This document shows, piece by piece, positions 5,588 through 58,363 of a stretch of 64,000 nucleotides of DNA (position 1 is the stretch's first letter; every line of letters begins with the position of its first letter). Position numbers and translations under genes: made by a program. Origin of the DNA: Bilabrum cf. latius (taxonomy: Eukaryota); assembly GCA_965178125.1 (NCBI GenBank), contig OZ237774.1, forward strand, positions 62,001-126,000, given 5' to 3'. Under the pieces are notes generated by a model. The model was not told the DNA's origin. It was given only the letters and a program-made list of their open reading frames with translations, and searched no databases.

Positions 5588-6347
5588 TTAGTTCCCCTTC
5601 TTCGTCCCCTTATCCGACTTGAATGCCTCGAGGTCCTTCTTCACCTCCTTCTCCACCTCGTCGTGGAATCCTCGCATGAACCCGCACAGCATGAGGAACT
5701 CCATCAGCACGAACAGGGGGGCCATGAAGATGCTCTAGGGCAGGTTGTCCAGAAGGGCGGGGGCGCGGCCCTCGTGGACGAAGTGCCCGTAGAACTGGGC
5801 CACCCACGTGAAGCCGTGCACGGCCCATAGAGTGCCGTAGATGGACCAGCCGTACTCGGCTGCGACCATTTCGGCGGTGAGAAGACCGGCGCCCAGCAGC
5901 GGAAAGGCGAGCATGCCCAGCGGGATGTCCATGAACAGGTAAAACAGCGCGTAGCACGTGGCAAAGATGAAGGACACGTGTCCGAAGGAGAAGAACGGAA
6001 GTACTTTCTCCGCACTGGCCTGCAGACTAGCCACCGCGGGCACGTGCTCTGCGATGAGCTCCCTCGGAACCTCGTGGTAGCTGAAGATGCAGAAAGCTGT
6101 CCACAGGAGGATCGGTACGCAAACCAAATGAATCAGCTTGTTACTGCATTACTCGAATGAAATCAGCGACCGGATGGCAAGACAATTCAACGCAGCTGCG
6201 CACGTTGGAATATCCAGTTGCTGTTTACACGCCCCATCACGATCGGGTCAAGTGATCTACGGCTGCACCGACTCACACAAATTCACTGTGGTAACCGGCG
6301 TAGAAACGAAAGTTTCGAAACAGAAATGTGTCCTTTGCAGACCCCAT
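5588..6347 (-). CDS. MPO1: Mpo1/DUF962-family ER membrane protein (2-hydroxy fatty acid dioxygenase-like); 1 in-frame TAG, TAA stop
   Basis: Exon 1 (6347-6277) encodes MGSAKDTFLFRNFRFYAGYHSEFV. Intron 6276-6144. Exon 2 encodes NKLIHLVCVP...WVAQFYGHFVHEGRAPALLDNLP[TAG 5735-5737]SIFMAPLFVLME...KGTKKGN and stops at TAA 5588-5590, leaving a KKXX ER-retrieval terminus. Confidence 0.9.
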
Positions 6348-6485
6348 GACTCCTCAACTGCTTGCAGTATCCAAAGCCTAGCCTCTTTTCGTCTCATAAC
6401 CTTTACCTTACAAAGGAAGTCTGTATTACGCAACCAGAACGGCAACCGTGCATGGATACCACACAACACAATTCAAATCGATAGC

Positions 6486-7844
6486 ATGGCAGCCTTGAAA
6501 AAAGTGTCTGGTGTTTTTATCGTAGCGGTGAGTTGTTCCTAGAATGGCCAGTGTTTCTGGAATTAGCTCGCATGTCCCGGCGAATAGTATCGCCAGCATC
6601 CGTCACCCAGCTGAGCAACGCAAGTGATGGCATTCATATCACCAATTGCCTCACTATTCTATTGGCAGGCGCGGCGTACGGCCTTTGGTACGTTTGGCGG
6701 AGCTCTGAAAAACTTTACAGCAACCGATTTGGGCCAGTTTGCCTCCGAGGCGGCCATCAAGGACGCCGGCGTGGACCCCAAGCGGATCGATGCGAGCATC
6801 TTCGGCAGCGTGGCGCAGACCAGCACCGACGCTCCCTATTTGGCAAGGCATGTGGGCCTGCGGGCCGGCATGGACGTATCCTCCACCGCGCTGACGTTGA
6901 ACCGGCTGTGCGGCAGCGGGTTCCAATCAGTCATCACTGCAGCCGAGCAGATCCTGCTGGGGGAGTCCAGCGTGGTGCTGGCGGGCGGCAGCGAGAGCAT
7001 GTCCCAGGCGCCCCTGTCCGTGTACGGGCAACACGCCAGGTTCGGCCACCGCCTGGGGGCTGACCTGCAGCTGCAGGACACTCTCTGGAGCGCGCTGACG
7101 GACGCGCACGCCCAGGTGCCAATGGGCATCACCGCCGAGAACCTTGCGACCAAGTACGGCATCACCAGGGAACAAGCGGACGAGTACGGGTACCGCTCCC
7201 AGCAGGCGTGGGCCGCTGCACAGGAGGCCGGCGTCTTCTCCTCCGAGATCGCCCCCCTGGACCTGGGCAAGAAGAAGGGCCAGTTTGCAGTGGACGAGCA
7301 CCCTAGGCCGCAGACATCGCTGGAGAAGATGGGCCAGCTCAGGCCGGTCTTCAAGAAGGACGGGACCGTGACAGCGGCGAACGCATCTGGCATCGGTGAC
7401 GGGGCCGCTGCCCTCGTGGTCGCATCCGAAGAGGCCTTGGGCCCCGGCGGTGCCTTGGAAGGTGCCACCCCCCTGGTGCGGGTGGTGGGCTGGGGGGTAT
7501 CCGGCGTGGAGCCCACGGAGATGGGCATCGGGCCGTGCCCCGCCGTGCGCACCGCACTGCATCGCACGGGTCACTCTCTCGAGGACGCGGACGTGGTCGA
7601 GGTGAACGAGGCCTTCGCCTCCCAGTACCTAGCCGTTGAGAAGGAGCTGGGGCTAGACCGGAACAAGACGAACCGACACGGGGGTGCGATCGCCCTCGCG
7701 CACCCACTGGGCGCCTCGGGTGCTCGCATCCTGACTCACCTGACGCACCAGCTGTCCCAGGAGGGGGGGTCGGACAAGGTGGGCATCGGGGCCGCGTGCA
7801 TCGGGGGCGGGCAGGGCATCGCTGTGGTGCTGGAGCGGGTGTGA
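6486..7844 (+). CDS. 3-ketoacyl-CoA thiolase (ACAA2-like)
   Basis: Exon 1 is 6486-6527 and the intron is 6528-6668. Motifs are [55 protein letters not shown] and [10 protein letters not shown]. It ends at TGA and has no TAG. Confidence 0.95.
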
Positions 7845-8018
7845 GTGGAGAGGGGGCACTGTACTGCAGTGCACTGCAGTGTCGGGTGGGTTGATTGCAT
7901 GCATGCATAGGAAAGGAAGGATACTTGCAACGTTTTGATGGTGGCCGTACGGTTCCCGATTAGCCGATCCGGAGCCGCAGCGGCTAGATCTAGCCTAGAG
8001 CAATCACATGCCCTAAGC

Positions 8019-9462
8019 ATGGCAATGAAACAGATAGCCGGAGGGACACCAGATTCCTTACGCTTAGCGCTGGAGGACGGCGCTGATCCAAATCGCGTCT
8101 TGCCTGTGAGAGCCCACGCCAACTTGCTCTCAGACACCGAGTCTGTCGGTTGGTAGCATGGACGATACGCTAGCTGCAATGACTGAAGAAGCGACCAATC
8201 ACGTGTATACCTTTAGTTTCTACAACAGGGTGGAATGACTCCAGCCCATTGGTGTGTGGCCCTCGAGAGGCCCGATATGCTTGCTGTTCTTGCTGAATCA
8301 CATGGCGTGAATCTAGAGGCACGGGAGAGTGCGAGGCAACGAAGTACGGGCTTTGCACATCGAAACGAACCAATTGTATCCTTGTACGCCAGCTTGGATC
8401 AACGTTCCGGGCCAATGCAGAACGGTTCAACGCCGTTGCATGCGGCTGCTTACAAGAACGCCATCGATTGCGTGAGCGTATTGATCCAGAGCAATGCAGA
8501 CATCAACGCAAAAGACAATGTGAGGGACATGATATCACCTGTAAGTTGTTCCGATCCATCGAAACTGGATGCATGGCTCGATGCAGAGCGGGGAGTCCCC
8601 TCATGCTGCGGCGGCTCTGCGTTTGGGTCGGTTCCACCAACCGCAGGACAGGCGCACGCCCCTGCACTGGGCGGCCCGGACAGGCCACTTTGAATCTGTT
8701 GGCACGCTGCTGAAGGCGGGAGCAGATGCAAACGCTGCGGATAATGTGAGGATTTGGTAGAAGCTGTCGTACAGTGCAGTGCAGTTGGCCAGAACACTCT
8801 GCGATGAGCGGAATTCAACATGATCGATATGCGACTGTGTCATGCTATGCTCTCTACACTGCACCGCACTGCACCGCACTGCACCGCAGGCAGGGAACAC
8901 GCCGCTCCACCTGGCAGGTGTGGCGGGCTCTGTTGAATCCGCCGGTCTGCTCCTGCGGGCTGGGGCCTACAGGCGAGCAGTGAACAATGTAAGACCAAGA
9001 ACCTCAGGATAAACAGGCAGGGTGTCGGCCGAAACGATCGGGGTATCCCTCCATGCGACTTGTTTCCCCGCCCCCCTCTATCCCAGCCCCCATTTCTTCG
9101 CATCTATCTCGTAGGCTCGCGAGACCGCTGTATCTGCTGGAGAGCTGAATCAAGCGCGGAAATTGATCCGATCATACATTGATCCGATCCCCCTCAGGCT
9201 GCTCCTCTGGAGACGGGCCCATGAGGCGCACAGGGACGCGGGCATGGTGTTCAGGGCGGCTGCAGAGGGCAGGCCCATGGAGCTGGCCAGGAGGCTGAGG
9301 CTGGGCAAGCTGGCCGGCGGGCTGGAGATGGAGGGCGAGGTGGAGGACGGGGCTGGTGGCATTAAGATGGTGGGTCCGCTAGAGGCAGCTAGATTGGGGG
9401 GGCATGGCGAATGCGTTAAAACTCTCGAAAGTGGGGAAGAGGTCGAGCCAAATATTCCGTAA
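8019..9462 (+). CDS. Ankyrin-repeat protein with the shared C-terminal 'RAAAEGRPxELARRLRLG' module (copy 1)
   Basis: Exons are 8019-8105, 8229-8330, 8421-8519, 8647-8745, 8890-8988 and 9115-9462. Internal exons each encode one ANK repeat (TPAHWC, TPLHAAA, TPLHWAA, TPLHLA). The stop is TAA 9460-9462. Confidence 0.8.
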
Positions 9463-9630
9463 AACCGGAACTCTGTCCCGGCAAAACTGTGTCAAACAGT
9501 TGCTTGAAAATGTAAGTTGCATCGTGATATTTTGGATATTTGTTCCAGCGTGTGATTTATGTTACTTTAATGTCTGCTGTGCATCAACAGGTTTGCATCG
9601 CGCCGTGGACTTCTGCTCAGGTCGGCAATA

Positions 9631-11291
9631 ATGCAAGCTGTTGCAAGAAACGATGTGGACAAGCTTCGGGCGGCACTGCAAGCAGGAGGACCTGTGGATC
9701 GTGTTTTTGGAGTGAGCTCAGTCCACTATGCATCCTTTTAAGGATAGTAGCGAACGAAGTTTTCGAGTATGACTTCAACTTCCATATTCGCAGCGTGGCT
9801 CCACTCCATTGACTTGGGCCGCACTATACGGTCGTGTACAATGCTTGGATCTACTTGTTGAATTCGGTGCGGATCTTGAGCATAAAATGGCCGTGAGCAC
9901 GGCTTCCTTTGCAATTATGTATTGGATCTTACTCGATGCTGCCCTGCGCACCAGTTGCGAGTAATCCCAGTGAGTCATTGCATCAGTTGTATTACGCGTT
10001 CCAATTCCTTCCAAAAGTGAGTCGCGTGCAGTTTGGTTGGACCGCCCTGATGAGTGCCAGCAGCAACGGGCAGACGGCTGCCGTCCAGCGCCTGCTGGAT
10101 GCAGGTGCTGACGTTGGAACGACAGACGAGGTGAGGGCGAATCGCTTCTAGTATTCAATTGCTATGCTGGAAATGCATTTCTGAAATCAGCTGCGTCCGA
10201 TCGCTGCTCGCTTCCTCCCTCACTTCCCAGTACGGGTACACCCCGCTTCACACCGCCAGCCAGTCCCACCAGGATGGCCACCTGCAGTGCATGGAGGTGC
10301 TGATTCGCGCTGGCGCAGATGTGAACGCGCAGTCATCAGTGAGGTTTGCAATCGCTCTATACCGCTCGGCATACCGCCACTGCTGCCATCCTGGGGGTGT
10401 GAATGGTTGGGTTTGTGGGAGTGAATGCGCGCGGGCAGCTTGAAGCCATGTATCGCATCTGCGGCAGCTGTCACCGCTGCAACTATACGGCAGCGTGTGG
10501 CATTCCTCTGCTATGAATTCTAGTAGTTGTGTAGCTTTGCTTTGCTGCCGCAGGGGCTTGAGACCCCTCTGATGTGCGCCGCCGATGAAAGCATGCTGGA
10601 GGCATGCTCTCTGCTGCTGGGTGCAGGAGCCGACAGGTCTATTCAAGACGACGTGAGCGAATTGCAGAGTGCGTGATATTGATCGATTAAATGTGAATTT
10701 CCAGTGAAAGCGCAGATAGACCGCGCCGCCCTCCGACTCGTCTCTCATTTCAGCTGCCCAAGACGCTGCCTGCGCCGATCCACGATCCAAAAAGGATGAC
10801 ATCCCGACCTTCTACCGGTGCCAGCCATGCCGTGACTCCTAGCACCCGTCCATGACTCATAGCAACCGTCCATGACTCATAGCACCCGTCCATGACTCCT
10901 AGCACCCGTCCATGACTCCTAGCACCCGTCCATGACTCATACCAATCATCCGGACCCGCAGGAAGGGAAGACGCCAGCGCAACGAGCCTTGGATGAGAAT
11001 CGCACGACGTGTGCCGAGCTGATCCGATCGTACATTGATCCAATCCCCCTCAGGCTGCTGCTCTGGAAGCGGGCCCATGAGGCGCACAGGGACGCGGGCA
11101 TGGTGTTCAGGGCGGCTGCAGAGGGCAGGCCCATGGAGCTGGCCAGGAGGCTGAGGCTGGGCAAGCTGGCCGGCGGGCTGGAGATGAGGGGCGAGGTGGA
11201 GGACGGGGCGGGCGGGACTAAGGTGGTGGGTCCGCTGGAGGCGGCTCGATTGGGCGAGCATGGCGAGTGCGTTGAGCTGCTTGAAAGCTGA
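9631..11291 (+). CDS. Ankyrin-repeat protein with the shared C-terminal module (copy 2)
   Basis: Exons are 9631-9711, 9794-9892, 10032-10130, 10231-10338, 10554-10652 and 10962-11291, all phase 0 with GT-AG borders. ANK motifs are TPLTWAA, TALMSAS, TPLHTAS and TPLMCAA. It ends at TGA; the start is uncertain. Confidence 0.8.
10831..10940 (+). repeat. Intronic 20-bp minisatellite (CATGACTC[A/C]TAGCACCCGTC), about 5.5 copies
   Basis: The tandem copies are directly visible. The duplicated intron carries about 3 copies at roughly 14615-14675. Confidence 0.9.
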
Positions 11292-12641
11292 GTGGCGATC
11301 TGATGACCAGAGTCTTGTGAAGACGAAAGGAGGGAAATAAGCTGGCGAGTCGGGTGCTGAGTGATAGTGATCGCAGTGATTGAATGTAGAGTGGCCTAGA
11401 TCTAGGCACAACATTTTTTAAGTATCCGCAATTGCCACAGACCTGTATTGCCACCACCATGCAATGTAAGTGATTGAGGATCCCCAACCCTTCCCTCTAA
11501 GGTTCAGAAATCGTTTGTACTAGCATTGTCGAAATATGATGCAACGGCCCTCCGTGAGCGTGGACATCACGATGCAAAAGATCTGCCTTGACCTCGTCCT
11601 GCGACGCGATCCCATCTGGATACCTACATGTAACCTTACCAGAAGCTTCCCCAGTACGCAACTTCAACCGATTCCTTCATCATTCCGCTTTAGGGTCAGC
11701 TTGAGTCCCTAAAGAAGATGGAGCTGGAGGCTTTGGATTCCTCTGGCGTCACGATTGAGGAGCTACCGAGCGGGGCTGGAGGCGGATCCTCTGCTTCTGC
11801 TCCTGCTTCCCCACAGCTCCTGTGGAGCGAGCAGAGCTCATCCTCCTCGGACGGCGGGAACCATAGTGTTGTGCCACGCGTAAAGGAATGGTGGGCGGTG
11901 AGTTCTGCGGTTGATGCTCTAGCTTAGGCTGGGGGGGCAGGAGGACGACGGGTGGAGGGGCGTGTAGGGGAGGAGACGGTGGGAGCTGTGGGTCAGGAGG
12001 GTGTACGGATTGCCCTGCTGTGCGATCGAGAAATTGATCCCGTATATCTAAGAGATTACCATCGTGTTACCCTCACCCCCCGTAGTTGCCCCCTAGCACC
12101 AAGCAATCTCACGAGTTGCGGTTGGGGGCGAGGCTGGGATCCAGTCGCCACCTGTCTCCGACCTTGCCGCGTACTTTAGGAATAGCTGACCCACATCGAA
12201 CTGGTGCAATAACTTCGCTGTACTCACTGCCCCCGACGAAGAGACCACGAAGAAGCTGGATGCCCACCTAGAACATGGTGGATCGCTCAGCGGGTACTGC
12301 TGCCCGAGTCCTAAGGAGATCACCGATTCCGACAACGGAGCGACCTAGAGCGGGTGATGTGCTGAAATTCTTGGAGTGAATTGGCCGCATAAAGCGTCGG
12401 AGTCATAGCTGGTCTCGGAAACCGAGAGCCACATCAACCTTCAGGCGCTGTGGACGTTGAGATCCCAAAACGTTCAACGATACCAATGTAGAAGTAGAAT
12501 GTGGGGGGTTGGAAACAGGTTTCGAGGATTGTGTTAATGCATTGTTCTGTGTGTGGACGCTGGGAAATGTCTCATGCCAGACGGCGACGGGCCGTGCCGC
12601 AATCGCGAAGCTGGAAGCTCCCAAGGTGGCTGAAGCACGGT

Positions 12642-13728
12642 GCATACGGATTCGCCGACGAGATGGAGGCATACGAGGAGGAACGCGATGAGTCAGTTCT
12701 GATGGCTGATTGTCAGCTCGAGCGGGGCTGTGTGACGGAGGAGGTGGTTTGCCGACGGAGAGGGGCAGGGCCAGCAACACGTTGTATCCAAGAGACGGCG
12801 AGGCTGGGGCGAAGGAGCGATTGTCTGAATTCGTCCCACCGGAAAAACGGTTATAGGATCAAGTTAAAGTCATTGACACCGTGTCGTACTCCTCTCGAGC
12901 GGCATAAGAGCCTCGATTTTCGGATCACTAGCAAACACCCGTCGCCTCTCCACAAATCAGGATGCGGTCGCTCCCATCTACACTGTGGCAAGCACGTGCC
13001 GCTTCTGAGGCTCAATGACAAGGCATACGGATTCGCCGACGAGATGGAGGCACACGAGGAGGAACGTGATGAGTCAGTTCTGATGGCTGATTGTCAGCTC
13101 GAGCGGGGCTGTGTGACGGAGGAGGTGGTTTGCCGACGGAGAGGGGCAGGGCCAGCAACACGTTGTATCCAAGAGACGGCGAGGCTGGGGCGAAGGAGCG
13201 ATTGTCTGAATTCGTCCCACCGGAAAAACGGTTATAGGATCAAGTTAAAGTCATTGACACCGTGTCGTACTCCTCTCGAGCGGCATAAGAGCCTCGATTT
13301 TCGGATCACTAGCAAACACCCGTCGCCTCTCCACAAATCAGGATGCGGTCGCTCCCATCTACACTGTGGCAAGCACGTGCCGCTTCTGAGGCTCAATGAC
13401 AAGGCATACGGATTCGCCGACGAGATGGAGGCACACGAGGAGGAACGTGATGAGTCAGTTCTGATGGCTCAGCTCGAGCGGGGCTGTGTGACGGAGGAGG
13501 TGGTTTGCCGACGGAGAGGGGCAGGGCCAGCAACACGTTGTATCCAAGAGACGGCGAGGCTGGGGCGAAGGAGCGATTGTCTGAATTCGTCCCACCGGAA
13601 AAACGGTTATAGGATCAAGTTAAAGTCATTGACACCGTGTCGTACTCCTCTCGAGCGGCATAAGAGCCTCGATTTTCGGATCACTAGCAAACACCCGTCG
13701 CCTCTCCACAAATCAGGATGCGGTCGCT
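12642..13728 (+). repeat. 381-bp tandem repeat, about 2.85 near-identical copies
   Basis: The unit start GCATACGGATTCGCCGACGAGATGGAGGCA occurs at 12642, 13023 and 13404. The third copy lacks 6 bp (GATTGT) and is truncated. Confidence 0.95.
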
Positions 13729-14021
13729 TACACCAGTTCCCCCCGAGTAGCACGAGCTGCTTTGCTTGTCAGCGACATGACAGCATCAGATTTACCAAGT
13801 GCCATGGCGTAGGCCTTCTTCGCGTCTGTTGCTGCTTCACCTGCTGCTTCGAAGGCCTCTTTCTTGGCCTTCAATTCGGCTTGCACTGCAGTTCCAAGTC
13901 CCTCACAAGCCTCAACTATTAGTTTGGCCCCCGCGGATACCCCATTCTTGTACTCCTAAGTCTTCTTCAATTCTAGAGTGGCTTCCATCTCCTCAAATGG
14001 TTTCTTACCAACTCCGGCCAT
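13728..14021 (-). CDS. Small Ala/Lys/Glu-rich helical hypothetical protein, 97 aa (1 in-frame TAG, TAA stop)
   Basis: The start context is AAAAACAATG. It translates as MAGVGKKPFEEMEATLELKKT[TAG 13956-13958]EYKNGVSAGAKLIVEACEGLGTAVQAELKAKKEAFEAAGEAATDAKKAYAMALGKS...GELV-TAA. Confidence 0.45.
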
Positions 14022-14327
14022 TGTTTTTAAGGTTTAGCACTGGAGAAGTGGGGGTGGTTCAAATGGGTCCGTAAATAACGAATTGAAATAACCCCACACA
14101 ACAAAACTTAGTAACGAAAGTTCTTCAACTTTCGGCGCCGGTATCCGGGTCGGCTTGAGCGAGTTACCCTTGGGCTATTCCCGGGTCCGCCGCATTGTCT
14201 ATCTTTCTGGGCGCTTCGTCTACTGAAGTCCATTAGCTCGGACATCGGCTACCTGCTCCTCAGTGGTATCACCCGCAAACTCAGCAGCACGAGCTTGTGA
14301 GAGCTTTCGCCACATCCGCTCGCGCAG

Positions 14328-15015
14328 GCTTTGCTGCCGCAGGGGCTTGAGATCCCTCTGATGTGCGCCGCCGATGAAAGCATGGAGACATGCACTTTGC
14401 TGCTGGGTGCAGGAGCCGACAGGTCCATTCAAGACGACGTGAGCGAATTGCAGAGAGAACGCTATTGATCAACTATATGTCCATTTCCAGTGTGATTGCA
14501 GGTAGACTGCGACACTCTCCAACACAACTTGCATTATTGCTGGCTAGGAAAGTGCCTGCGGCGAACCACAATCTAAAAACGGGGATCCTGACCACCTGCC
14601 AGTGCCAGCCATGCCGTGACTCATAGCACCCGTCCATGACTCATGGCACCCGACCATGACTCATGGCACCCGACCGGATCCGCAGGAAGAAAAGACGCCA
14701 GCGCAACGGGCCTTGGAGGAGAATCGCACGACGTGCGCCGAGCTGATCCGATCATACATTGATCCGATCCCCCTCAGGCTGCTCCTCTGGAGACGGGCCC
14801 ATGAGGCGCACAGGGACGCGGGCATGGTGTTCAAGGCAGCGAGCGAGGGCAGGCCCATGGAGCTGGCCAGGAGGCTGAGGCTGGGCAAGCTGGCGGGGGG
14901 GCTGGAGATGGAGGGCGAGGTGGAGGACGGGGCGGGCGGGACGAGGGTGGTGGGTCCGATGGAGGCGGCTCGATTAGGGGGTCATGACGAGTGCGTTGAG
15001 CTGCTTGAAAACTGA
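14328..15015 (+). pseudogene. 5'-truncated duplicate of the last two exons of ANK copy 2 (module copy 3); pseudogene or alternative 3' cassette
   Basis: From 14328 the sequence closely matches 10539 onward. Exon 14343-14438 has a 3-nt deletion and exon 14686-15015 ends at TGA. Splice sites are intact, but no upstream exons are visible. Confidence 0.65.
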
Positions 15016-15283
15016 GAGGTGATCTGATGACTAGAGTCTTGTGAAGACGAAAGGAGGGAAATAAGCTGGCGAGTCGGGTGGTGAGTGATTGGAGCTGGAG
15101 CGGGCTCGATTTAGGCACAGTTTTTCCGAGTCTCCGCTATTGCCACAGAACCGTATTTGCCACCAGTCACCAGTGGCGCACCACCATGCAATGTTGCGTG
15201 CTATTCCTAGAGACGTAGTTCTCGACAATCTCCCCCAGTCCATTTACATTGAGGCCAAAACAACTACTTGTCTGCTGTATATC

Positions 15284-18200
15284 ATGGCAATGCGTACGGA
15301 TGCCCCTCATTGTGACAAAAGCTACGCGATCCAGCCTGGAACCGGGGATGGACGGCGTAGGCATGGCATCAATTTGCCGAACCAGGTACCATAGTACGGA
15401 CATGATACCTCGCAAAATCATATTGTTGATTCAATATTTCCAAGTTTGCCAGCTTTGCTGGAATCCTTACCACCTAGTAAAGCGGCAGAATTGCGCGGGG
15501 TTCTGTTTGGCCTGGCTGTTCCAACACTGCGAGACACCAAACTGCAGATTTTTCATGGGTCCATACGACGAGCAGTGCATGTATATTTCAATAGCCGCCG
15601 TCGTAATGCTCAACACGATTGTGGTGAACTTCAGAGACGTGTCCAGCAGTCGATCAGGGACCGAAAGAAGAGCATCTTGCTCGCCAGCAAATGGACCAAG
15701 AACATGGCTGGTAGATCCGGGACGGTAATGTCATCGGTCTTACCCTACCTATCGATGGCTGATATCAGCAGGCTAGCATAGACGTGTAGTGCTATTCGGG
15801 CAAGCCTCGCAGCTCACTCCAACCAGGTCGCATCGAGCATTGCAAGCGAGCTCGGTACAAGGGTAAGCCAGCAGGTTGGAAACGGATCGCATGGTCTCGC
15901 AAGATTATGGCAACGTACGTCCATGCTCATTTAGTGCGGAGGGCTGCTGGCAAGCGCTGTAGAAGTGCCAGAGACTCACCCTGATGGTGGCGGCGAGAAT
16001 ACCGCTGCGGTGCCAGTGTACGATAGAGATATTCGCGAAGGCAGCAGCAGTTCGCCTCACGGATGGAAATACATGCGCGCGGATGTAGTGCGTGGTCACG
16101 AGGATACGGGCAAGTCCTGTGGTACCCATGCCTCACCCGTGGGATAGTCCCCAACCCATGCTAGAGGAAGAAATTCACGTCTCCGTGGCTCCGCTGCATC
16201 CTAGCCGCTGCTTGGTTCTGCAAAGAAGTTTCATTCGAGTGTAGGCGTGCAAGGTGTCATGAGCTCCACCAAGGGCAAGCCTTCAATATATGGGGCAATC
16301 AATGCCACCGAGAAAGCTTCCTGCCAAGGTGTTCCGCTGCCTACCAACACAGCCGATGGCCAGGGTCACGGCACGTCTGTAGATCTAATTCATGAACTAA
16401 GGTAGCTATGCATGTAGCATGGGGTTGCAGTACCCTCCCGTCTTCAGGCCATGGCAAGGGATCCTGCTGCAGGTGGGCTAGCGCGGGCCATCGTGGAGTG
16501 GGAGGCGGCCGGGATGGTGCTGGGAGGGGAAGACCCTCGCGAGTTCGAAGGATGGTTGGAAGAATCAGCTGCCACTGCTCTGCTGCTTATGGGAGTCGCG
16601 GGTGCGCTGGTGCATCTTCCGGGGCGCATGGATGCCATCCGCAACGTGTTCAAGAACACCCACGAGACGAGGCGTCGGTTGACTCGGGAGGAACATCCAT
16701 GGCACCGTACCACGCGAATAAATGCTAGCTAGGATGATTTGCATCTGGAGCATGCCTCTGCGACCAATTCCTCCCGGGTGTTGATTCCGCATCCTGGGGG
16801 TGTGCTGGTAGACCCCGATGTCATGGAGCTGGATGCGGTGCAAGGGCTGTTTCATGTTTCCCAGGACAGTGAGGACGACGGTAACGAAGCCAGCCATCAA
16901 GATCGTTTTCGACGAATCGTAGTGGGTGCGATGAAAGACTTCAGACAGGAGGGGCCCGACTTGGAGTGGCGCATTGAGCGATTGGGTCTAAACACTCGAA
17001 CCGATAGTCTTGGTTTGAACACGCAGGGAAATTTAGGGCTGCACTTTGACTGGCTGACTAGTTCTGGAGCGATAAGTGGGCATCATAAGGTATCGGGCTG
17101 TATTCGGATGCAGGTACTTGCGACCCCTGGAGTATTCCCTGGCCGACGGTAGGAGATCTAGCAACTTTACACCCAGTCTGATACGATACTAGGAGGGACC
17201 TCGCACCAGAATGATCTAGCAGTGCAATCCTCCCGCAGCAAGTGCTCGAGGCCAAGTCGTAGGCAGTGGGCCATGCCTGCTCCATCGCCTCTAGACGCAG
17301 CTCGCTGGCATCAGATTGCCGCCCTTGAAGGCAGGGACATTGACATGGTGTCAGAGCTCGTCTACAAGCTTCCGCATCAATGTGACATTGCGGCAAACAA
17401 CCTCAGTTTAATTGATCACTACTGGTGCTACTGCAAGAGCTGCTCCTGCTGTAGGATCTTCTGCTCGTCCTACCCATGGCGCCTAGTGCTGATGCTGTTA
17501 GTGGACTGCTGTCATGTCACTGTCCCTCTGGTGTTTTTTCTGGTGTTTGCGATGTCATTCGTAGCTCAAGCCGTGCCAATGGCTTGCACCCGCATGGAGC
17601 TGGCTGCCTACAACGAGACGGTGCTGTCAGTTCCTCCATCACAGACCAACGTACCCATGGATGTGTTGGATGACATCACGTCCCACTGCTGGTCTGGCAA
17701 GATGCTCGGGTGGGGTGGGCACAATTCAACAGCAGCAAATGTGGTGAGCACAGTGCAGGATTTCAGTTTGGATCCATGGTTGCAGTGGACGATGCTCTTC
17801 CCAGCTTGGGTAGCCGCCATGTGCGTGTGCTGCGTCATCGTTTGCTTGCAGCCATGCATGTGCCACACTTCCGACGGATCAATGTATCCCCCCATAGTGC
17901 TACTGCTGTGGTCGACGTGGGACTTGAAAACTCCAACTGACCGTGATATCGTTGGAGCGGATGGTCAACGTCAAGTGCGCATCAGAGATTTTGTTTAGAT
18001 TTCCAGCTGGACGGCCAAAGTCAGCTTTAATGAAGCGGCTTTCTTCCGGAGCTCGCGGATAGCAGGGCGCCCTATCAACTACCTCCCTATTTCTATTTCT
18101 AATGCCCAAATGATGCTGTACGATCCCGTGATGGCGGGATTAAGTGGTATCCTTGCGCCTCCCATCCTAAGTGTACTATCAGTATTGGCTGTTGCAAGTA

Positions 18201-20131
18201 CGTATACGATGCTCGGTATCGACCTACTCGTACAGGAGAGAGCCCGCGATGCTTGCCAATACGCAGGAATATCGGTTTTGACGGCTCTTGTCGTGCCACT
18301 TGTCCTGAATATACTTCGGCTCCAATGGCGAAATGGCGGGAGGCACGGCTGGTGGCCAACCCTGCACACTATCAAACTCGGGTGCTTGTGGTTGTCATGG
18401 TCATTTTTCGATTGTTTTGGGTTGGGTGTTCTGTTAGTTATTTGGAGCGACGGGGGCTCTCATGCTGCTGGTATTGCACTTTGGGTGTTTGCTTGTATGC
18501 GGCTGCTACTCATGTTCTGTCACAGTGGACTGGTGTATGGATGTCTCGACAACTAGTCTCATGGGGCGCGTATGGTCATGGAGAATGCATTCGATGTTCC
18601 ATTCTGGGACGTTCTATTTGAAGCACCAAAGTATGCCGTCCTGGCTACGATTTGCACAGTGATTGCAATGCATGCGAGCCCTGTTGCGATCATCACGTCT
18701 CCGGTGTCGCTTGGGGCTTGGGTCATGGCGACGTATATGGTCGCAGCTGGTGCATCCATCATTTAGCTCTGTCTCTGCTGTGGACTTCCTATTGGAATTG
18801 CGTTCAATAGATCCATATTGCAGACAGGTGGAAGCTACGCGGGCGAGTTGAAAGGCATACGCTTAGCGAATTAGACTATATCAGCCATGCGGCAGCGAGT
18901 TGCGTCACACCAAGTGCAGACACGCTTCCTAGGGTGCTGTTTGTTGCATGGCTCCATGTACGAAAACGATGGCTGCTACAGGGGGACATGCTGTCAATGC
19001 TCGGACGATCCAGGGTATTCGAATCCGACTGCAGCTGTCGCACAGCGGTGGTACAGCCCGGAATTTAGTGCAACGTTCAATAGAATCCGTAGAGACAGTT
19101 CGATGCGCCTTCCCACAAGCGATGCCAGCGACTGCTGCCCTCGATGGGTTTCTCTCTGTTGCGGTGACAAATCCATACGGGACTATGAGGACGACCTCCA
19201 ACAGCGAATGGCTAGCTGGCCTCCAGCTTGTCACTTCGGGTTGACTCTCCCTAACCCTAACGGAAAGTAGAGCAGGCGGTTCAACCCGAAGCGCGGAGCA
19301 GAAGCAGGACTGGCTGCCGCCAGCATGGCCAGCAAATATCTGATAAGGCGCGCTGTCCTTGCTCTTCGGTCTGCCCACGGATCTGCTGAAGGGACGGGGG
19401 CGGCCATGCTGCAACTGCATCTCCGGCTTGAGAGGCTGCAAGCATCCATTCGCTAGGCACTGAGCAGTGATAGACGTCCACATACCATCAGCCGTTCATA
19501 TCATTCGCATCGCCAAGGGAACACGCCTCGTATTGATCCTTCCAGCTTTGCCATGACTGGGCTGAACTTGCCACAGTTGCACATGCAGGTGCGGGCGGCG
19601 AGTGGGGCTGCGATTACCGCTGCCATGCTGCTGCTGGGGGGTCCTAAATCGCTCATGGGCGAGTTCGTCAGCGTGCAGAGATAGCATTCGCAACATGGAC
19701 AGAGCCATAGTCGCGCGAACCGTAAAGGACGTGGCAGGTCACTGGCAGGAGGCAGCAGCGCGGCAAGGGGATATGGTGACAGTGTAGATGCATGGACCGT
19801 TTCTGATCAGTCTTCTGCCAATGCAGCCGGCTCCGCAGCTATGCATAATGCAGAAGATGGTGGTAGCGACCGTGATAGGCTATCCCATGCCTTGGAGCGG
19901 GGGAGATCGGCTTGGAGGCGAATGGTATCCAGGAGCATGCCAGAGGGAGGTGCTCCATCATGGACGACTGCAGATGCATCGATGTTGGTGGAGATGGGGG
20001 GAGGGGAGGCGGTGTACAGAGTGCAGGCGGGTGGCAATTTGGCAAGGTCGCAGGGCGGGATACGTGGAAAAGGAGCATCGCTGCCTGCCGGTGGGAAGGG
20101 TGGCATGGGTGACAGTGATCTGAGCGATTGA
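15284..20131 (+). CDS. Large intronless protein of about 1615 aa with an F-box-like motif and a multi-pass TM region; 17 in-frame TAGs
   Basis: The single frame has TAG at 15392, 15779, 15932, 16145, 16202, 16403, 16415, 16730, 17150, 17159, 17996, 18554, 18764, 18872, 19268, 19454 and 19682, with no TAA/TGA until TGA 20129-20131. The F-box-like motif is VLPYLSMADISRLA[TAG]TCSAIR. Many hydrophobic segments lie at about 17470-18800. An alternative start is ATG 15191. Confidence 0.8.
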
Positions 20132-22695: not shown

Positions 22696-22769
22696 AGGTC
22701 GCTTTCGGGCCTGAGCGAACCTTCGTTGCTTGCGATCGAATTGCTGGTCTACTCGCACACTTGTTCAAG

Positions 22770-25700
22770 ATGCCTGCGAAGCAGATGTCCCTCATGTCTA
22801 TGTTCGGCGCTCGCTCAGGGGTAAGCAAATCAACTAAGCCACCCACGAAATAGGAAAACGCCGCTGCCGGGCGCTCCTCCCCGCGGAGAAGCAGCCCTCG
22901 CCGAGCGAGCAAAGGTTCAAAAGATTCTCCGGCACCTGACGTGGGGTCTGCCAGCAGCTCCAAAGCGGCCGCCAAGGGCGCATCATCGAACCGCAGCAGC
23001 TCTAGTGATGATAAAATTCCCGTATAGGACGATTTGGAAACGACCATGTCCGGGGATGGCGCGGAGGAGGACCGAGAAGCAGACACGCGTAGCAGCCCAG
23101 CGGCGCTCGAGACTGGAGCAGACACGCCCGCTAGCAGTGCAAGCTCGTCATCAAACGCAGCCATGGGTAGCTATACTAGTGCTCAAGACCAAGCAGCAAG
23201 CTCCGGGCGCCGTTCCTCCCCGCGAAGAGCGCACTAGGGAGCTGCCTCGTCTACAGCTGCAGGCACCGCGACAGCTTCGGGCCCGGTAGCCGACGCTTCC
23301 AAGTCGCATGAAGGCACATTCTCGCAGGAGCTAGAGCAAGAGGCCAGCGAAACCGAGCGGGCGGCGAGGGAGCAGCAAGAGGCCGCCGCCCGCCGACTGG
23401 CCGATTTGCGTGCCATGGCGGCCGACGACCGCGAGCAGCAGTACCAGCGGGCCGTGGCCGACCTGCAGGCGATGCTCTCTAAAGCGGAACGATTCAACGC
23501 CGGCTGCGACGCGCTCGCCAGCGAGAGCCCCTTTTTGTGCAAGGAGCAGCCCGCAGGGTTCAGCGGGGGCCAGCTGCGCGACTACCAGCAAAAGGCCGTG
23601 GCGTGGCTTTCAGAGAAGCACTGGCTGGGCGAGAGCTGCATTCTGGCGGACGAAATGGGACTAGGAAAGACCGTGATGATCGCCGCATTCGTCGCTTGGA
23701 TGACGGCAGCGCCCGTGCAGGACGGCCCCGTCCTCGTGGTGGCGCCCCTGTCCACGCTCAGGAACTGGGTGAACGAATTCAGGAAATTCTGCCCGGGCGT
23801 GCCCGTGGTGGAATACCATGGCGATAAGGAGGAGCGCGCCGCCCTGAGAAGGGAGCACCTCCCGCACCTGCCCAGGTGGGCGGGGAGGGTGCCCACGAGG
23901 CCGGGGCAGCGGCCGGGGATGGGGCCTAGGCCTCCCAGGGGCAGGGGGAAAGGCAGGGGGAGGGCAAGCGGGGCATCGTCATCGTCTTCATCCTCCTCTT
24001 CATCTGCCAGCGCGGCACGCAACGAAGATGAAGACGACGAGGACGAGGACGATGTGCTGGACCCCTCGGAGCTCAAGGAAGCCAGGCAGGCCGAGAGGGA
24101 CAGGGAGGCCATGCGTGGGTGGAAGGGGGGCTAGGGGCCCGCGGCATGGACCAGGGAACACAGGAGCAACTGCCCCGTGTTCATCACCACGTACAGCATC
24201 GCGATGAACGACCGCGTGGTGCTGGGCAGGGACGCTGTTCCCTGGGGGCTGCTGGTGGTGGACGAGTCCCACCGCCTCAAAGGGGTCGACTCTAGGCTCA
24301 AGCAGGAGCTGGCGGCCTACTGCACCGCCCCCGGGCAGGGGCCTGGCACTTCGGGGGCCGGCACGATGCGCGTGATCCTGACTGGCACACCTCTGTAGAA
24401 CGACCTGCTGGAGCTGTGGTCCCTCTGCAACTTCGTGATGCCCATGATATTCGCGGACAGGGAGGCCTTCGCGTCCGTGTACGGGTTTCTTTCCCTGGAT
24501 GACGAGCAGGGGCGGGCGGACGTGAAGGCCAGGCAGGAGAGGGACCACATCGTTGGCACACTGCACAGGCTCATGGGGAGGTACGTGCTCCGGAGAACCA
24601 AGGCGGACGTGAAGCTGGCGCTGCCCCCCAAGGTGGAGTGCGTGGTGTACTGCGGGGTGAGCGAGGAGCAGAAGAGGATCGGGAGGGCCCTCGGGGGTGT
24701 GACGAGTGAGGTTGGTGGTGGGGAGGGGGAGGAGGAGGGGGGGGAGGGGGGCGAGTCGCTGGCCGGGGCGCTGGCAGGGATGGGGTGGGTGTCGCGCGAT
24801 GACATGGAGAGGGGCAGGGTGGGCGATCAGGGGGCTGGGGGTCGCGGTTTGGATGTGACGAGTGCAACGGTGAACGACTATGACCAGTCGGCATTCGTGG
24901 AGCTGGCGTCCAGCAGCGACGAGGACGAGGACGAGGACGAGGAGGACGAGAAGGCGAAGGCGAAGGCGAAGGCGGGACGGAAGGGCCGGGCGTCTTCGTC
25001 GCCATCGTAGCGCTTTGGCAAGACGGCGCCGCGCAGTCCCAGCGGAACCAAGGACCTGGCCGCAAGGGCCGCGCGACGCGTTGCACGGGGCAGGAGCGGG
25101 GTGGAGCGGCAGATCGCGGCCGAGCTGGGGCTGGGGCTGACAGCCGCGGAGGACGCTTCTGCGGAACATGACGCCGCGCAGGAGAAGCGCGCGTTAGAGA
25201 TGGCCGCTCGGCTCGGTCGTAAGCGAACGAGGAGGAGCATCAACATCAGTGGTAATGCGGGTGCTGCTCCTGCCTCCAATCAGGGGGGCGAACGGGGGGA
25301 GGAGGAGGGGGAGAAAGGAGGCAGCGGGTCCAAGTTCATGGAACTGTCCTGGTCCAGCAAGAGGGGGCGAGGGAACAAGGGGATGGGGTCCAGGGAACAA
25401 GCGGCGGATGGGACAGGTGTTGGCGGTGGTGGCAGGGGCGGGCATGGGCGCGCGGGCGGGGGCATTAACAACCTGACCATGCAGCTGCGGAAACTAAGCA
25501 ACCACCCCTTCATGTTCGGGGAGCCCAGGGAACTCGCGGAGGAAGCCGCCGCCGGGGGCCAGGGAACAGATGATCGGATCATCCGGTGCAGCGGGAAGAT
25601 GCAGGTGCTGGACTCCATGCTGCGGCAGCTGCGGGCGCGGGGGCACAAGGTGCTGATTTTCACCCAGTTCGTCCGCGTGATGGAGCTGCTTGCAGATTAC

Positions 25701-34377: not shown

Positions 34378-36390
34378 ATGCTTCGCCGGTTCGCAACGAG
34401 TTCTGCTCGCATTATGTCCCGCGCTAGCAGCCGGTCTTGGTCGCAGGGAGGTCGCTGGATGTCGGCAGCGGCGTCCGCATCAGCCACGCTGGAGCCTACG
34501 GAGATCACCGTGGCTCGCGGCGATGGCATCGGCCCCGAGATCATGGACGCAACCCTTCGCATTCTTGAAGCTAGCAAGGCTCAGCTTGTGACACATGAGA
34601 TTGAGATCGGAGAGAAGGTGTACAAGGCGGGGTACACGAGCGGCATCAAGCCAGAGGCTTGGGACCTTCTTCGCAGCACCAAGGTCTTCCTGAAGGCGCC
34701 AATCACCACCCCGACAGGCGGAGGTTACAAGAGCCTTAATGTGTCGGTGCGGAAGACGCTTGGTCTTTTCGCCAACGTGCGCCCGGTGCAGAGCATGCAT
34801 CCATTCGTTCAGTGCGACAGGCACCCCATCGACATGGGTGAGTCCGACACTTCAATATCGCGCGAATCCGCACTGGTTGATAAATACGTACGCACCATTG
34901 TGATTGTGACCGCGTTCCAGGCATTGCTGGGCATTTCATCGCAAAGCCACACTTGTTCGCGCACCGTCGCGCGGTTGCTTGTCCCAAGGTGCACCACTCA
35001 AATCTGCATTATGTTCTACGCCTACCCACGCAGTCATTATGTAAGAACTAAAAAATAACTAATTAGTGGATTGGCTTCGCCGATCGATGCTTTGAACGCC
35101 TGCTGGAACGCGACGCGAACATTCTTCGCGCTCTCGCATCAATGCCGCACACCCTTTGCTGCTCCTCGAATTCATTTTCTTCTCGCGCTATCCGCATTCA
35201 CCTATACCCGCAGCCGCGAGAACGAGGAGGACCTGTACGCCGGCATCGAGCACCAGCAGACGCCCGACGTGACGCAGTGCCTCAAGATCATCACCAGGCA
35301 GGGGTGCGAGCGCATCGCTCGGTACGCCTTCGACTTCGCCCGCCGCAACAACCGCAAGCGCGTGACGTGCATGGTCAAGGACAACATCATGAAGATGACG
35401 GACGGGCTCTTCTACGACGTGTTCGAGAACATCGGCAAGACCGAGTATCCCGACATCGCCCGCGATCGCATGATCATCGACATCGGGTCTGCCATCGTGG
35501 CGGATGACCCGGGGAGGTTCGACGTAATCCTGACGACCAACCTGTACGGTGACATCATCTCCGACGTGGCCGTGCAGGTGGCAGGGTCCGTGGGCCTGGG
35601 CGGGTCGGCCAACGTGGGCGACTCTTGCGCCATGTTCGAGGCAGTGCACGGCTCTGCGCCCGACATCTCGGGCAAGAACATCGCCAACCCCAGCGGACTT
35701 CTCCTGGGCTCGGTGCAGATGCTGCAGCACATCCGCCAGCCCGGCGCCGCTGAGCAGATCTACAACGCCTGGCTGAGGACGATCGAGGACGGCTGCCACA
35801 CGGTGGACATCTACCAGCCCGACAACGAGGAGGTGGGCTCCAAGTACAAGATGGGGACGAAGGAATTCGCAGACGCGGTCATCGAGAGGCTGGGCCAGGA
35901 GCCGCAGAAGATGAAGCCCGTGAGGTACACGGGCAAGGCCCAGGCCGCCTCGATGGGGCAGGGGCACGGGTCCTCGGCGGGGGAGGGGGAGGGAACAAGC
36001 GAGTCCCCCGTGTGGGACCCCCCGAGGAAGGAGAAGACCCTCCACGGGGTGGATGCATTCGTCCAGTGGGAGGGCAAGGACCCCGACTCGCTGGCGGCGA
36101 CGCTCAAGGCAGCCGCCGAGAAGGCAGGCATCGAGGACCTGGAGCTGCGGCTCATCACCAACAGGGGGGTCCGCTGCTGGCCCGACCACTTCCCCGAGAC
36201 CTTCCTGGTGGACCACTGGAGGTGCAGGTTCAGGCCCGTGGGCGACGACAAGGGCGTGGTGCCCATGAGCTCCGTGCTCAAGGTGCTGGGGGCCGTGGCC
36301 GAGTCGGGGGATGGCGTGGATCTCATCAAGATGGAGGGGCTCTACCTCTTCGATGGAGAGCTCGGGTTCTCGCTGGGCCAGGGCGAGTGA
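34378..36390 (+). CDS. icd: Bacterial-type isocitrate dehydrogenase with a C-terminal extension and a mitochondrial-type presequence
   Basis: Exons are 34378-34837, 35034-35040 (7 nt) and 35214-36390. Motifs are ITVARGDGIGPEIM, LKAPITTP.GGGYKSLNV, DMVIIRENEEDLYAGIEH, KDNIMKMTDGLF, NLYGDIISD, MFEAVHGSAPDI and C-terminal ITNRGVRCWP...DHWRCRF...GFSLGQGE. It ends at TGA. Confidence 0.93.
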
Positions 36391-36892: not shown

Positions 36893-39800
36893 ATGGCTCT
36901 CACAGATGACGAAGTGAGGAAACCCATGGAATTTTCTGTGTTGCATGCTCAGTAATATCCACCATACCCGTGTGCATCACGTGACGGGTGTTCGCGGGTT
37001 GCTCAGCAGGCTGTTCGGTGTTTGCTCTACATTCCGATAAATGACAAGATCTTGGACACCAGAACGTGCATGTGTTTTCAAGTAGTAGTAAATTGTTGTT
37101 TACGATCCAGGCAAGCGCCAATGGGTCATTGACTGGTGCAAAGACATTTCGCAGCATTCCCGCAAACCGAGCGGAGACATAGTCAATAGTTCGCTACTAG
37201 CAAGCAACAACGCATTCCGTATGCTACCTGACGTGCATTAAAATCGAGTGGTTCACATTACTGCTAGCTTTCACGGCCTTTCTACGCAGTTCGAGGATCT
37301 GACAGACTCTGATGAGGAAAGCCCGGGACCGCTGCGATCGAGAGCAGATTTTGGCAGCACAGGCACGGGCCCCATCGGCCTAACCACCCCGAGTCTACCC
37401 GTGGATAGCCGTTCTATCCGAAGCGAGTCGGCTGGTGGCGCATCATTCGGCAGTACGGGCGGCAGCAACGCCCGCGGGATGGGAGTATCGCCGCAGGGCG
37501 CGGCTGCAGCCGCTGAGACTGGCACTGCCGCTGGCATGACAGGTGCGGGCCGGTCGGGGGATATGCCTAATCGAACCTACGGAGACACTGACTCTGAGCC
37601 GGCGCCGCACAAAGGCAACGGGGCATACCACGGGGGCAGCGGGGGCAGCGTCAAGGCAGCCACGGTGGCAGCAGGAGAAGTGGACGGATTGCGCGGCGCC
37701 GCCGTTGCGGAACCAACCGACCCTGTCCACCCCACAACAGCGGCACATAGCGGCAGCGGAGTCAGCAGCACCCGCCACTCGGAATCGAAATCCCCCCGGG
37801 ACGTTGCGGGCAGCGAGGCCGGCAGCAGCGGCAGCGGCAGCAGCGGACCCCCCAGCTCTAGGGCACCCTCAAGGATCAGCGCCCCCAAGCCGGAAGTAGG
37901 AGCGCGAGGCCTATCGATGAGCCAGTTGGAAGAACACCAGCAGGGACAGGAACAGGAACAGGAACAGGGGCAGGGGCATGTGGAGCCCCCAGCATTCGAC
38001 GCTCTTGGCAGGGTCCGGATCGTGGATCGGGACAGGGGGGTCGTCTACTGGATGGACCCTGCATCGGGGGAGATCTTCGATGCCCCCGCGGAGGGGACAT
38101 CGTCGGGGGCAGGACCCCGGGGGGGTGGCAAGGCAGATGACGAGCGCGCGCTGGGCGGGATCGGCGCCCCCCCCGCAGTGGTGGCGGCTGGACTGAGGGG
38201 GGGGGCGGTGGGCGTGACTGCGGCCAGCGACGGGGGGAGCCGGATGGGGGGGACTGGGGCAGGACCCCGGGGGATTGTGGGGTCAGCGAGCGATGCGGGT
38301 GGGGAGGGGGGCCAGGATGCATCGCACGGTGGTGCAATGGGCGGGTTCTACTCCAAGCACCACACGTTCCTCGGTGTTGGGAGGCAGGCTGCAGCCATCG
38401 AGGAAGAGGAGGAGGAGGAAGACGAAGAGGACGGTACCGGTGGCGGAAAGGGTGAGGCGGGCCGTGCGGGCAGTGGCCAGGTCGGTAGCGGTGTGACGAG
38501 TGCGATGGCCGGCGGTGGTGCCGGGCGCACGGCGGACGCGGCCGAGGCCAGGGGTCTGGCTCGGGCCACTGAGAGGGCGGCCTAGCAGGCCGGCTCCGGA
38601 TCTTCTTCAGGGAACAAGGGAGGTGCGACGAGTGAGGAAGGGAAAGTGGGTGAGGGGGGCAGCGGCAACGGTGGCATGTTTGGGTTCTTCGGGCGAATGT
38701 TCGGCGGAGGTTCGTCAGGAGCAGCCGCGGGGAGCGGCAGCAGCGGCGGCACCCTTCCCACCCCTGGGTCACCCATGGTGGGGGCAGCGGGGCAGGACAG
38801 CGCCATCGGCCCCCTGCAGCACCCCTCCCCCGTGGAGGCCACCTACGTGCAGAAGAACGTTCGCGAACTCACGAGGCTGTGCGAGGTGCAGAGGCTGGGG
38901 GCCCACTGCAGGGACTCGGAATCGCTATGGTGCGGCCGCTGGTCGCCCGACGGACGGTTCCTCGCCACCGCCGGGGGAAGGGAGGACGAAGGTTCGGTGA
39001 GGCTCTGGGACATCACGGCCGTGCTGCCCACGCTGGACGTGGTCCCGGATGGTGTGACGAGTGCGGGCGACGGTGCGGTGCCTCCGTCGCTGCCCGCATC
39101 GCACCCGTCACACGCTGGCCCCCTCAGTGGCAGCTCCGGCCGGGCCTCTGACGGGACGGCCGGAGCCGGGCCGTCTGGGTCGGGGACTTCGAGCAGCGCA
39201 AGCAGCAGGCGGGGGGGCAGCAGCAGCAGCAGCAGCAGCAGAAGGCGGGTCCGGCAGGTGGAGCTGGCCCGGTCGAAGCGCCCCCCCGCCCTGTGGGTCA
39301 TGCAGCCCACCTGCGCGCACCACTACCGCGGCCACTCGTCACACGTGGTGGACCTGTCCTGGTCCCGCAGCCAGCTGCTGCTGTCTGCCAGTTTGGACAG
39401 GTCCGTCCGCCTGTGGCACGCCTCCAGGGGGGAGTGTCTCCACAAGTTCCTGCACCCGGACGCCGTGTCCTCCGTGTCGTTCCACCCGTCCGAGGACAGG
39501 TACTTTGTGACTGGGTGTTTCGACCAGAAGCTGAGGGTTTGGTCGCTGGAGACCGGGCGCGTTGTTCTCTGGCACGCGACGGCGGCCGTCATCACGAGCG
39601 TCGCCTTCAGCCCGGACGCGAGGTTTGTAGCGTGCGGTTTGTACACGGGGCTGGTGACTTTATACCACACGGATGGGCTGCGGTACCACACCCAGGTTGA
39701 GTGCAGGAACAGGAGCGGGGCCCTCAGGAAGGGCCGCAAGGTCACTGGGCTCGACTTCGCCAGGGGGGGATCCCACTTGCTCGTGACAACGAACGATTCC

Positions 39801-54091: not shown

Positions 54092-54413
54092 AAATCCACA
54101 AGCTGGCTGCATGTAAATCAGTGATAGCACACAATAAGGGGGCCACAAGTGGGCAGTATGAGGCAGATGGAAACACTTCAAACCGCTCTACCAATCGCTC
54201 ACCAGTGGTTGTTCACATGGGAATTCCCACGAAAACTACCTACATCCTATCATCACTAGCAATAACTTTACTTTCTATACACAATATAATACTGGTGGCA
54301 ATCACCGGGCTTCCATTTTAGCAGTTCATGTCGAAGGTTCCATTTGGTTCCGCCGCATGATTTCGCGCGGTGCCTCCAGCTCTGCCTCGGCCTCGCGCCG
54401 GCCTACAGTTGGA

Positions 54414-57911: not shown

Positions 57912-58363
57912 GCAGCTGCACCTTAACTGTAGCACGGGAAATACAAGAGGGCGTTGTGGCAAGACGCGTTCAAACTACCAGTGAGCATAGGAGTAGAGCT
58001 CAGATCTCAATGCGGTTCTCACCATGGCATGATCACATGGAAACTCCGAAGCAAACCAACATCCTCTCATTATAATCCTGTAAATCAATGTTCTGATGAC
58101 TGATACCTGGAATAGATAGTCTAGTTTCTTTAGTTCCGCTAAATCCTGATGCGCGGCGCCATTGGAACCATCGAATCCGTGGATAAACATCCAGACTGCA
58201 TCAGATATCGCCAGGTATTATCTGGAGTATAAGTTTTTTCATCTTTTGCACGAGTCGCTGTAGAGCAGCCGCTAAACGTAGCAATCGATTGATTGAATCC
58301 AGTGGTTGAAGAACCCTTCAGCGACATCCTGGAACTTCGCAGTTCTCCTGGTTGTTTGTTGCA

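Follow-up and report, generated by a model that had tools for sequence, protein, structure and literature searches.

A probable decoupled stop-codon code in a GC-rich microbial eukaryote: UAG read as glutamine, UAA kept as a terminator

Here we analyzed the nuclear genetic code used in a 64-kb stretch of DNA (the window, meaning throughout the whole of that stretch). The window is DNA of a GC-rich, intron-bearing microbial eukaryote, with 55-71% GC across its 4-kb bins and GT-AG introns of 126-376 nt, those bridged by contigs of public runs measuring 126-215 nt. Its code very likely reads UAG as Gln and keeps both UAA and UGA as stop codons, a pattern that we take to be NCBI translation table 15. 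The initial annotation had proposed that UAG is a sense codon and UAA still a terminator, and this is what the present analysis supports, from in-frame TAG codons at invariant Gln positions, the lack of any in-frame TAA, and a TAA at the family C-terminus of an Mpo1-like gene. The code variant is already known; what is new is probably the lineage bearing it.

TAA is shunned in frame as fully as TGA. A first count over 17 open reading frame (ORF) bodies, comprising 13,898 codons, gave 67 in-frame TAG with 0 TAA and 0 TGA, alongside 187 GAA and 115 AAA. Because the 5' parts of some ORFs are noncoding, we repeated the count with trimmed starts, each piece beginning at its first ATG or at a known or inferred splice site; in the SNF2 helicase ORF, for instance, the first ~165 codons coincide with the end of the RRM gene, which is read in a different frame. 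This conservative recount covers 21 ORF pieces and 14,680 codons, and it contains 62 TAG, 0 TAA, and 0 TGA, in keeping with the roughly 60 internal TAGs and the absence of internal TAA described by the initial annotation. In the same pieces CAA:CAG is 110:385 and TAG makes up ~11% of all Gln codons. Scaling by CAA:CAG gives an expectation of 17.7 in-frame TAA versus 0 found (Fisher p = 7.2e-7). The other two frames of the same DNA carry 88 TAA, 166 TAG, and 511 TGA, and the TAA deficit tested against this out-of-frame TAG:TAA has p = 1.8e-10.

Three ORFs have a low GC content at third codon positions (GC3 near 0.55), and together they contain 31 TAG and 0 TAA versus 23 expected (p = 9.5e-7). 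The strongest single test of TAA avoidance is one long ORF:

15089..20131 (+): ORF of 1,681 codons with 17 in-frame TAG, 0 TAA, and 0 TGA; GC3 0.56

Its CAA:CAG is 23:39, and its other two frames carry 22 TAA and 55 TGA. The Pfam-supported subset of the recount (9,960 codons) has 28 TAG and 0 TAA versus 6.4 expected (p = 0.007). With TGA taken as the sole stop, the long ORFs are the same or are longer by short 5' pieces only; the count is not circular, since TGA-only ORFs gain no coding sequence. The 5' extensions of the isocitrate dehydrogenase (IDH) and WD40 ORFs, which hold several TAAs, were inspected and are described below, and the shorter extensions of the other ORFs carry one to three TAAs each.

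The Mpo1-like gene combines an internal TAG with a terminal TAA. Its protein matches Pfam PF06127 (DUF962) at 47.4 bits versus a cut-off of 24. For this and other genes we also drew on contigs of public runs, the kind of which was guessed and which were used only for what they bridge or cover. The gene has the following parts:

6277..6347 (-): exon 1, with the ATG at 6347-6345; exon and intron position are the same in the related metagenome locus L005
6144..6276 (-): intron, GT..AG; the 6143-6277 joint (CT..AC on the plus strand) is found in the X7 and X8 contigs
5591..6143 (-): exon 2, coding to the last sense codon, as given by Pfam PF06127, spliced contigs, and alignment
5735..5737 (-): in-frame TAG at an invariant Gln position
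5588..5590 (-): stop codon TAA, directly after K-K-G-N

An alignment of the Mpo1-like protein with 11 homologues (33-96% identical) has 22 invariant columns. The column holding the TAG is Q in 11/11 homologues, and the 96%-identical P0124 likewise has Q there. The codon is covered by the spliced X7 and X8 contigs, which come from two runs and two studies, with 0 differing letters. Since these spliced contigs retain the TAG unchanged, RNA editing is unlikely.

The TAA of this gene stands where the family ends. All 11 homologues terminate at most ~5 alignment columns from the last residue of the window protein and have Lys-rich tails. In three close orthologues the tail is of the KKXX type, namely KKGN in the window (before TAA), KKQA in L005 (before TGA), and KKRS in P0124. 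A KKXX tail is an endoplasmic reticulum retrieval signal only at the extreme C-terminus. Read-through of the TAA would append Gln and 22 further residues before a TGA, and GC3 drops from 0.84 in the Mpo1 coding sequence to 0.55 in the 22 codons between the TAA and that TGA. The gene has the form given to it by the initial annotation, which had it using TAG internally and ending at TAA 5588-5590 after KKGN.

A second TAG in the window could be assigned a residue by comparison with a solved structure:

24396..24398 (+): TAG at the Gln of the SNF2 motif ...TGTPLQN..., in the DDM1/LSH-type helicase ORF 22203-27026

In a residue-by-residue alignment with Arabidopsis DDM1 (PDB 7ux9_P), this codon pairs with the Q of ...TGTPLQN.... 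A third position comes from L005, recovered by a metagenome scan with the thiolase. The scan returned 21 loci, of which L001, L002, L003, L005, and L012 were inspected and the other 16, at 23-60% identity, were left out. L005 (85% identity) is the only close relative among the five inspected. L001-L003 and L012 were set aside as relatives, as they look bacterial (59-68% identity, GC 0.68-0.73, an intronless thiolase, and GC3 of 0.94-0.95). L005:1-2149 (2,149 nt, GC 0.54) shares with the window the divergent Mpo1-thiolase pair and the places of its introns, and its proteins are 78% (Mpo1) and 85% (N-terminal part of the thiolase) identical to those of the window. Four in-frame TAG occur in its ~410 codons, including one in the thiolase and one two codons before the TGA of Mpo1. 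At the position of the window's Mpo1 TAG, L005 has CAG, and it has TAG at another invariant Q, in the ...AQFYGH... stretch. Since TAG is in frame in both the window and L005, at least two related organisms read it as sense, and since the conserved TAG positions are Q in homologues, TAG stands for Gln. The Gln identity was checkable at three TAG positions, two in the window and one in L005; most TAGs sit in poorly conserved or low-complexity sequence, where the residue is not checkable.

We also determined which codons end the remaining genes. The first TGA or TAA was taken as the end of an ORF, and TAG as a terminator could be scored only at three ends defined by homology. With this definition 18/21 ORFs end in TGA and 3/21 in TAA, making TGA the usual stop codon and TAA a minor one. 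The genes that bear on this point, besides Mpo1 and IDH, are:

6486..7844 (+): thiolase (ACAA2-like); exon 1 6486-6527, intron 6528-6668, exon 2 6669-7841, TGA 7842-7844
9115..9462 (+): last exon of ANK copy 1, with TAA 9460-9462; from the contig joint 8988 to 9115 and the three-copy alignment
11289..11291 (+): stop codon TGA of ANK copy 2; from the three-copy alignment
15013..15015 (+): stop codon TGA of ANK copy 3; from the three-copy alignment
13728..14021 (-): orphan 97-codon gene, coding 14021-13731, with one in-frame TAG and TAA 13728-13730; covered by X7 and X8 contigs

The thiolase intron is bridged by a contig joint, and a poly-A loose end lies at 7930, behind the gene. Its TGA is one residue position from the ends of homologues P0004 and P0005. 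The IDH TGA lies at the end of the Pfam C-terminal domain, which is matched over positions 1-110 of 110. The homology-defined C-termini in the window are those of the thiolase (TGA), IDH (TGA), and Mpo1 (TAA), and no TAG occurs shortly before any of them. The TAA of ANK copy 1 is 9 codons past the TGA position of copies 2 and 3, in line with the few codons stated by the initial annotation, and copy 1 has GGG at that position. If this TAA were sense, a TGA would follow 15 codons further. A comparison of the orphan 97-residue protein with 1.84 billion representatives gave no relative.

TAA triplets do occur in frame next to the IDH and WD40 coding pieces, and these appear to lie in introns:

35056..35058 (+): TAA between two long IDH ORF pieces; intronic by splice-site reading
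34378-36390: IDH gene; exon 1 ends at 34837 (donor GTGAGT), then a 7-nt micro-exon at 35033-35039, with the next exon from 35214
36913..37289 (+): first intron of WD40, holding the in-frame TAAs 37038, 37089, and 37239; splice-site reading

Both splice models are drawn from splice sites, not from RNA. For IDH, the model would restore the family stretch ...IDMVIIRENEEDLY..., ahead of ...RENEEDLY.... The micro-exon is flanked by two putative introns and appears to be needed for both the frame and the conserved stretch. TAA 35056 was considered as a sense codon linking the two IDH pieces and was rejected, as it falls in the second predicted intron, behind the micro-exon. The candidate WD40 intron has a GTGAGG donor after a short ATG exon and a CAG acceptor before ...FEDLTDSDEE....

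Several points weigh against UAG as the only reassigned codon. Among the three TAA ends only that of Mpo1 is backed by homology; the ends of ANK copy 1 and the orphan gene are weak evidence, with the TGA of ANK copy 1 lost, its TAA is no more than the stop that comes next. RNA ends are uninformative on the Mpo1 TAA, because read-through adds just 22 residues and the contigs extend past the read-through end. Taken alone, the Pfam-supported subset shows a modest TAA deficit and presents the test at its weakest. The sample is also small, consisting of 64 kb and a single related locus of 2 kb.

Among other codes, an ambiguous and context-dependent one is unlikely. It would be of the type found in Condylostoma, karyorelicts, or Amoebophrya sp. 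ex K. veneficum, with TAG also terminating near mRNA 3' ends or TAA occasionally read through. Such codes are known (PMC4967479, 10.1101/2022.04.12.488043, PMC12005148; here and below, cited papers are represented by the portions of their text available to us). A terminating TAG just upstream of an end defined by TGA or TAA would also escape notice wherever the C-terminus is not conserved. However, the three ends that homology does define are TGA, TGA, and TAA with no TAG close before, and the L005 TAG two codons ahead of the Mpo1 TGA would complete the KKXX tail if read as Gln, which it would not do as a stop. TAA and TGA are moreover never in frame in 14,680 codons, unlike in fully ambiguous codes.

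A coupled code (table 6), in which UAA and UAG are both Gln and TAA is too rare to appear in a GC-rich genome, is highly improbable. The genome is indeed GC-rich (0.55-0.71), TAA is the rarest stop triplet overall (224 versus 441 TAG on the plus strand), and most known reassignments are coupled in the available text of PMC11687900. Against this, A-ending codons are common in frame, as the CAA, GAA, and AAA counts above indicate, none of the 17.7 expected TAA (23 in the low-GC3 ORFs) is found, and a TAA ends Mpo1 at the family C-terminus. That the in-frame TAGs are not Gln at all, being RNA-edited, another amino acid, or parts of pseudogenes or unrecognised introns, is barely credible: most of them do lie in poorly conserved or low-complexity regions, and the TAG at residue 156 of the leucine-rich protein LRR-A pairs with Leu in LRR-B (one paralogue comparison), but the spliced contigs retain TAG with 0 other letters, two TAGs in the window and one in L005 occupy invariant Gln positions, and frames of 1,200-1,900 codons run around the TAGs without TGA or TAA, unlike in pseudogenes or introns.

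Reading UAG alone as Gln would call for two changes in the decoding machinery. UAG would be read by a tRNA-Gln carrying a CUA anticodon, the simplest origin of which is mutation in a copy of tRNA-Gln(CUG); this tRNA could not pair with UAA, and no tRNA with anticodon UUA would be present. The eRF1 would no longer recognise, or would recognise less well, a G as the third base of a stop codon, with UAA and UGA still recognised. Both steps would follow from established decoding knowledge, as set out in the available text of PMC5304391. There, Panek et al. (2017) argue that reading UAG and ignoring UAA leaves one possible anticodon, CUA, which is one mutation from tRNA-Gln(CUG), and that eRF1 must lose or weaken UAG recognition; Iotanema has another residue in place of the Thr of its GTS motif. 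Within the 64-kb window a tRNA scan found 0 genes, Rfam at gathering thresholds gave 0 matches, and eRF1 is not encoded. Both the tRNA set and eRF1 should be directly recoverable from the same public data, since genomic DNA, spliced transcripts, and at least one relative are at hand.

The window otherwise holds ordinary eukaryotic genes, identified by Pfam:

NAT10, Arf-like GTPase, Mpo1-like protein, thiolase, DDM1/LSH-type SNF2 helicase, and RRM protein
cytidine-deaminase-like protein, IDH, WD40, armadillo, kinase, 3-beta-HSD-like, and RCC1-like proteins

ANK paralogues, leucine-rich paralogues, and several orphan ORFs are also present. Gene callers using the standard code would cut short about half of the organism's long genes. 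The three tandem plus-strand ANK paralogues (7990-15015) and the two minus-strand leucine-rich paralogues (52679-54301 and 56508-58217) have a common C-terminal module, ...RAAAEGRP.ELARRLRLG..., and the two leucine-rich genes share several TAG codons at conserved positions. The region 12642-14030 holds the orphan 97-codon gene on the minus strand and, directly downstream of it, a 381-nt unit repeated in tandem three times (copies 98-99% identical). Contig depth in the bin containing this gene and the repeat is far above that of its neighbours, contig depth being no measure of expression. The ORF at 28683-29603 matches Pfam PF18785, 'invertebrate AID/APOBEC-like deaminase' (E = 8.6e-22), with a low-complexity tail behind it. 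Around the RRM gene, X6 and X7 contigs jump from 22274 back to 21880 with 16 other letters between, which suggests that ~400 nt are tandemly duplicated or present as a paralogous copy.

Compared with solved DDM1, the SNF2 helicase has low-complexity inserts of ~100 residues inside the N-lobe, ~280 before ...MQLRK..., and ~85 inside the C-lobe, all of them open in frame. The word GTGACGAGT, the most over-represented 9-mer in the window, often stands at the start of low-complexity inserts, as judged against DDM1 and WD40 homologues. It occurs 26 times versus 0.5 expected, with 22/26 on the plus strand. Its extended form is approximately GGT GTGACGAGT G. Example sites are:

24699, 24855, 25797, and 26334
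38493 and 39054
59117, 60137, 61328, 61412, 61544, 61697, 63065, and 63821

Among the 20 sites inside examined ORFs, 17 read in one frame as Val-Thr-Ser, and 17/20 Val-Thr-Ser tripeptides use exactly the codons of GTGACGAGT, though AGT accounts for only 10% of Ser codons. We considered the word as the donor of in-frame introns and rejected this: the 300-nt stretches downstream of the 17 in-frame sites contain 0 TGA or TAA in frame versus 60 TGA in the other two frames, and their codon-position composition is the same as that of the 150 nt before. The word is not an intron boundary, since both flanks are coding. Contig cover is thin at 24643-25299 and 21975-22641 and is uninformative on splicing at the sites there.

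NAT10 and the thiolase were used in trying to place the organism. The named best matches of NAT10 are from Chromera, oomycetes, and Cafeteria, at 57-62% identity, and no ciliate is among the best 120 NAT10 matches listed. A NAT10 tree (LG+G4) was built from the window protein and 32 of the 120 listed matches (20 named and 12 unnamed), using the first 620 residues of each. In it the window protein falls next to Chromera and Cafeteria at the end of a long branch that drew a long-branch warning and gives no firm place, and the tree was not relied on. The thiolase gives no placement, its best match being 72% identical and its best named match, Symbiodinium sp. KB8, 67%. P0124 (Mpo1, 96%) is the only near-identical protein found, and the other window proteins seem largely absent from the collections searched. 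Public runs that contain this DNA come from four studies and bear four different organism labels, with no RNA run listed among them. The organism seems unlike both ciliates and fornicates, given its enzymes of mitochondrial type, GT-AG introns of normal size, and high GC, a judgement that draws in part on general knowledge of ciliate genomes. A search of the literature that lacked most subscription journals and all supplements found no published nuclear code with UAG alone reassigned to Gln outside ciliates and fornicates. We tentatively suggest, with the placement taken from a single gene, that the window could represent an undescribed aerobic, GC-rich protist lineage whose closest named NAT10 kin are alveolates and stramenopiles. 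The lineage would have at least two species-level members (the window and L005), and its change of UAG alone to Gln might be independent of those in ciliates and fornicates. It would then be the first case from that region of the tree, and also the first for which genomic DNA is available to search for the tRNA and eRF1 changes.

Almost all translation systems give UAA and UAG one meaning, with only a few nuclear lineages differing, as far as the available parts of the cited literature show. Each independent case is a test of the proposal that decoupling occurs by a CUA-anticodon tRNA together with a specific change in those eRF1 residues by which the third stop-codon base is read. Coupled reassignment of UAA and UAG to Gln (table 6) is recorded in the portions of PMC11687900 available to us for many ciliates, ulvophycean green algae, Hexamita, Streblomastix, and Amoeboaphelidium. 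In these codes the new meaning is also Gln, one tRNA-Gln anticodon mutation away. TAA is sense there, whereas here it is missing from the 14,680 codons counted. The same source describes other decoupled codes, with UAG = Leu in the rhizarian exLh, UAG = Ser in Scotinosphaera, and UAA = Lys with UAG = Glu in an uncultured ciliate. UAG is decoupled in these as it is here, but the amino acids are others, and the invariant positions in the present genes indicate Gln. The initial annotation had listed Iotanema spirale, an uncultured rhizarian, and some phyllopharyngean ciliates as UAG-only cases; the list needs a small correction, in that, in the available text of PMC5304391 and PMC11687900, the rhizarian changed UAG to Leu rather than Gln.

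Closest to the window in code are the UAG-only ciliates and Iotanema. Among ciliates, UAG alone became Gln in two phyllopharyngean lineages and in Protocruzia tuzeti (McGowan et al. 2024, PMC11687900, in its available parts), and their codon table is identical to that of the window as far as tested. Unlike them, the window has GT-AG introns of 126-376 nt, 55-71% GC, and long multi-gene chromosomal DNA. The fornicate Iotanema spirale likewise reads UAG as Gln and has UAA as its primary stop codon (Panek et al. 2017, PMC5304391, as far as its accessible text goes). The likeness lies in UAG as Gln with UAA kept as a terminator, and the same tRNA-Gln(CUA) and altered eRF1 would be predicted for both. 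The two differ in that Iotanema is an anaerobic metamonad known from its transcriptome, whereas the present case is one of genomic, GC-rich DNA with mitochondrial-type N-terminal extensions (IDH) and an ACAA2-type thiolase. The main stop codon differs as well, being UAA in Iotanema and TGA here, with 18/21 ORF ends.

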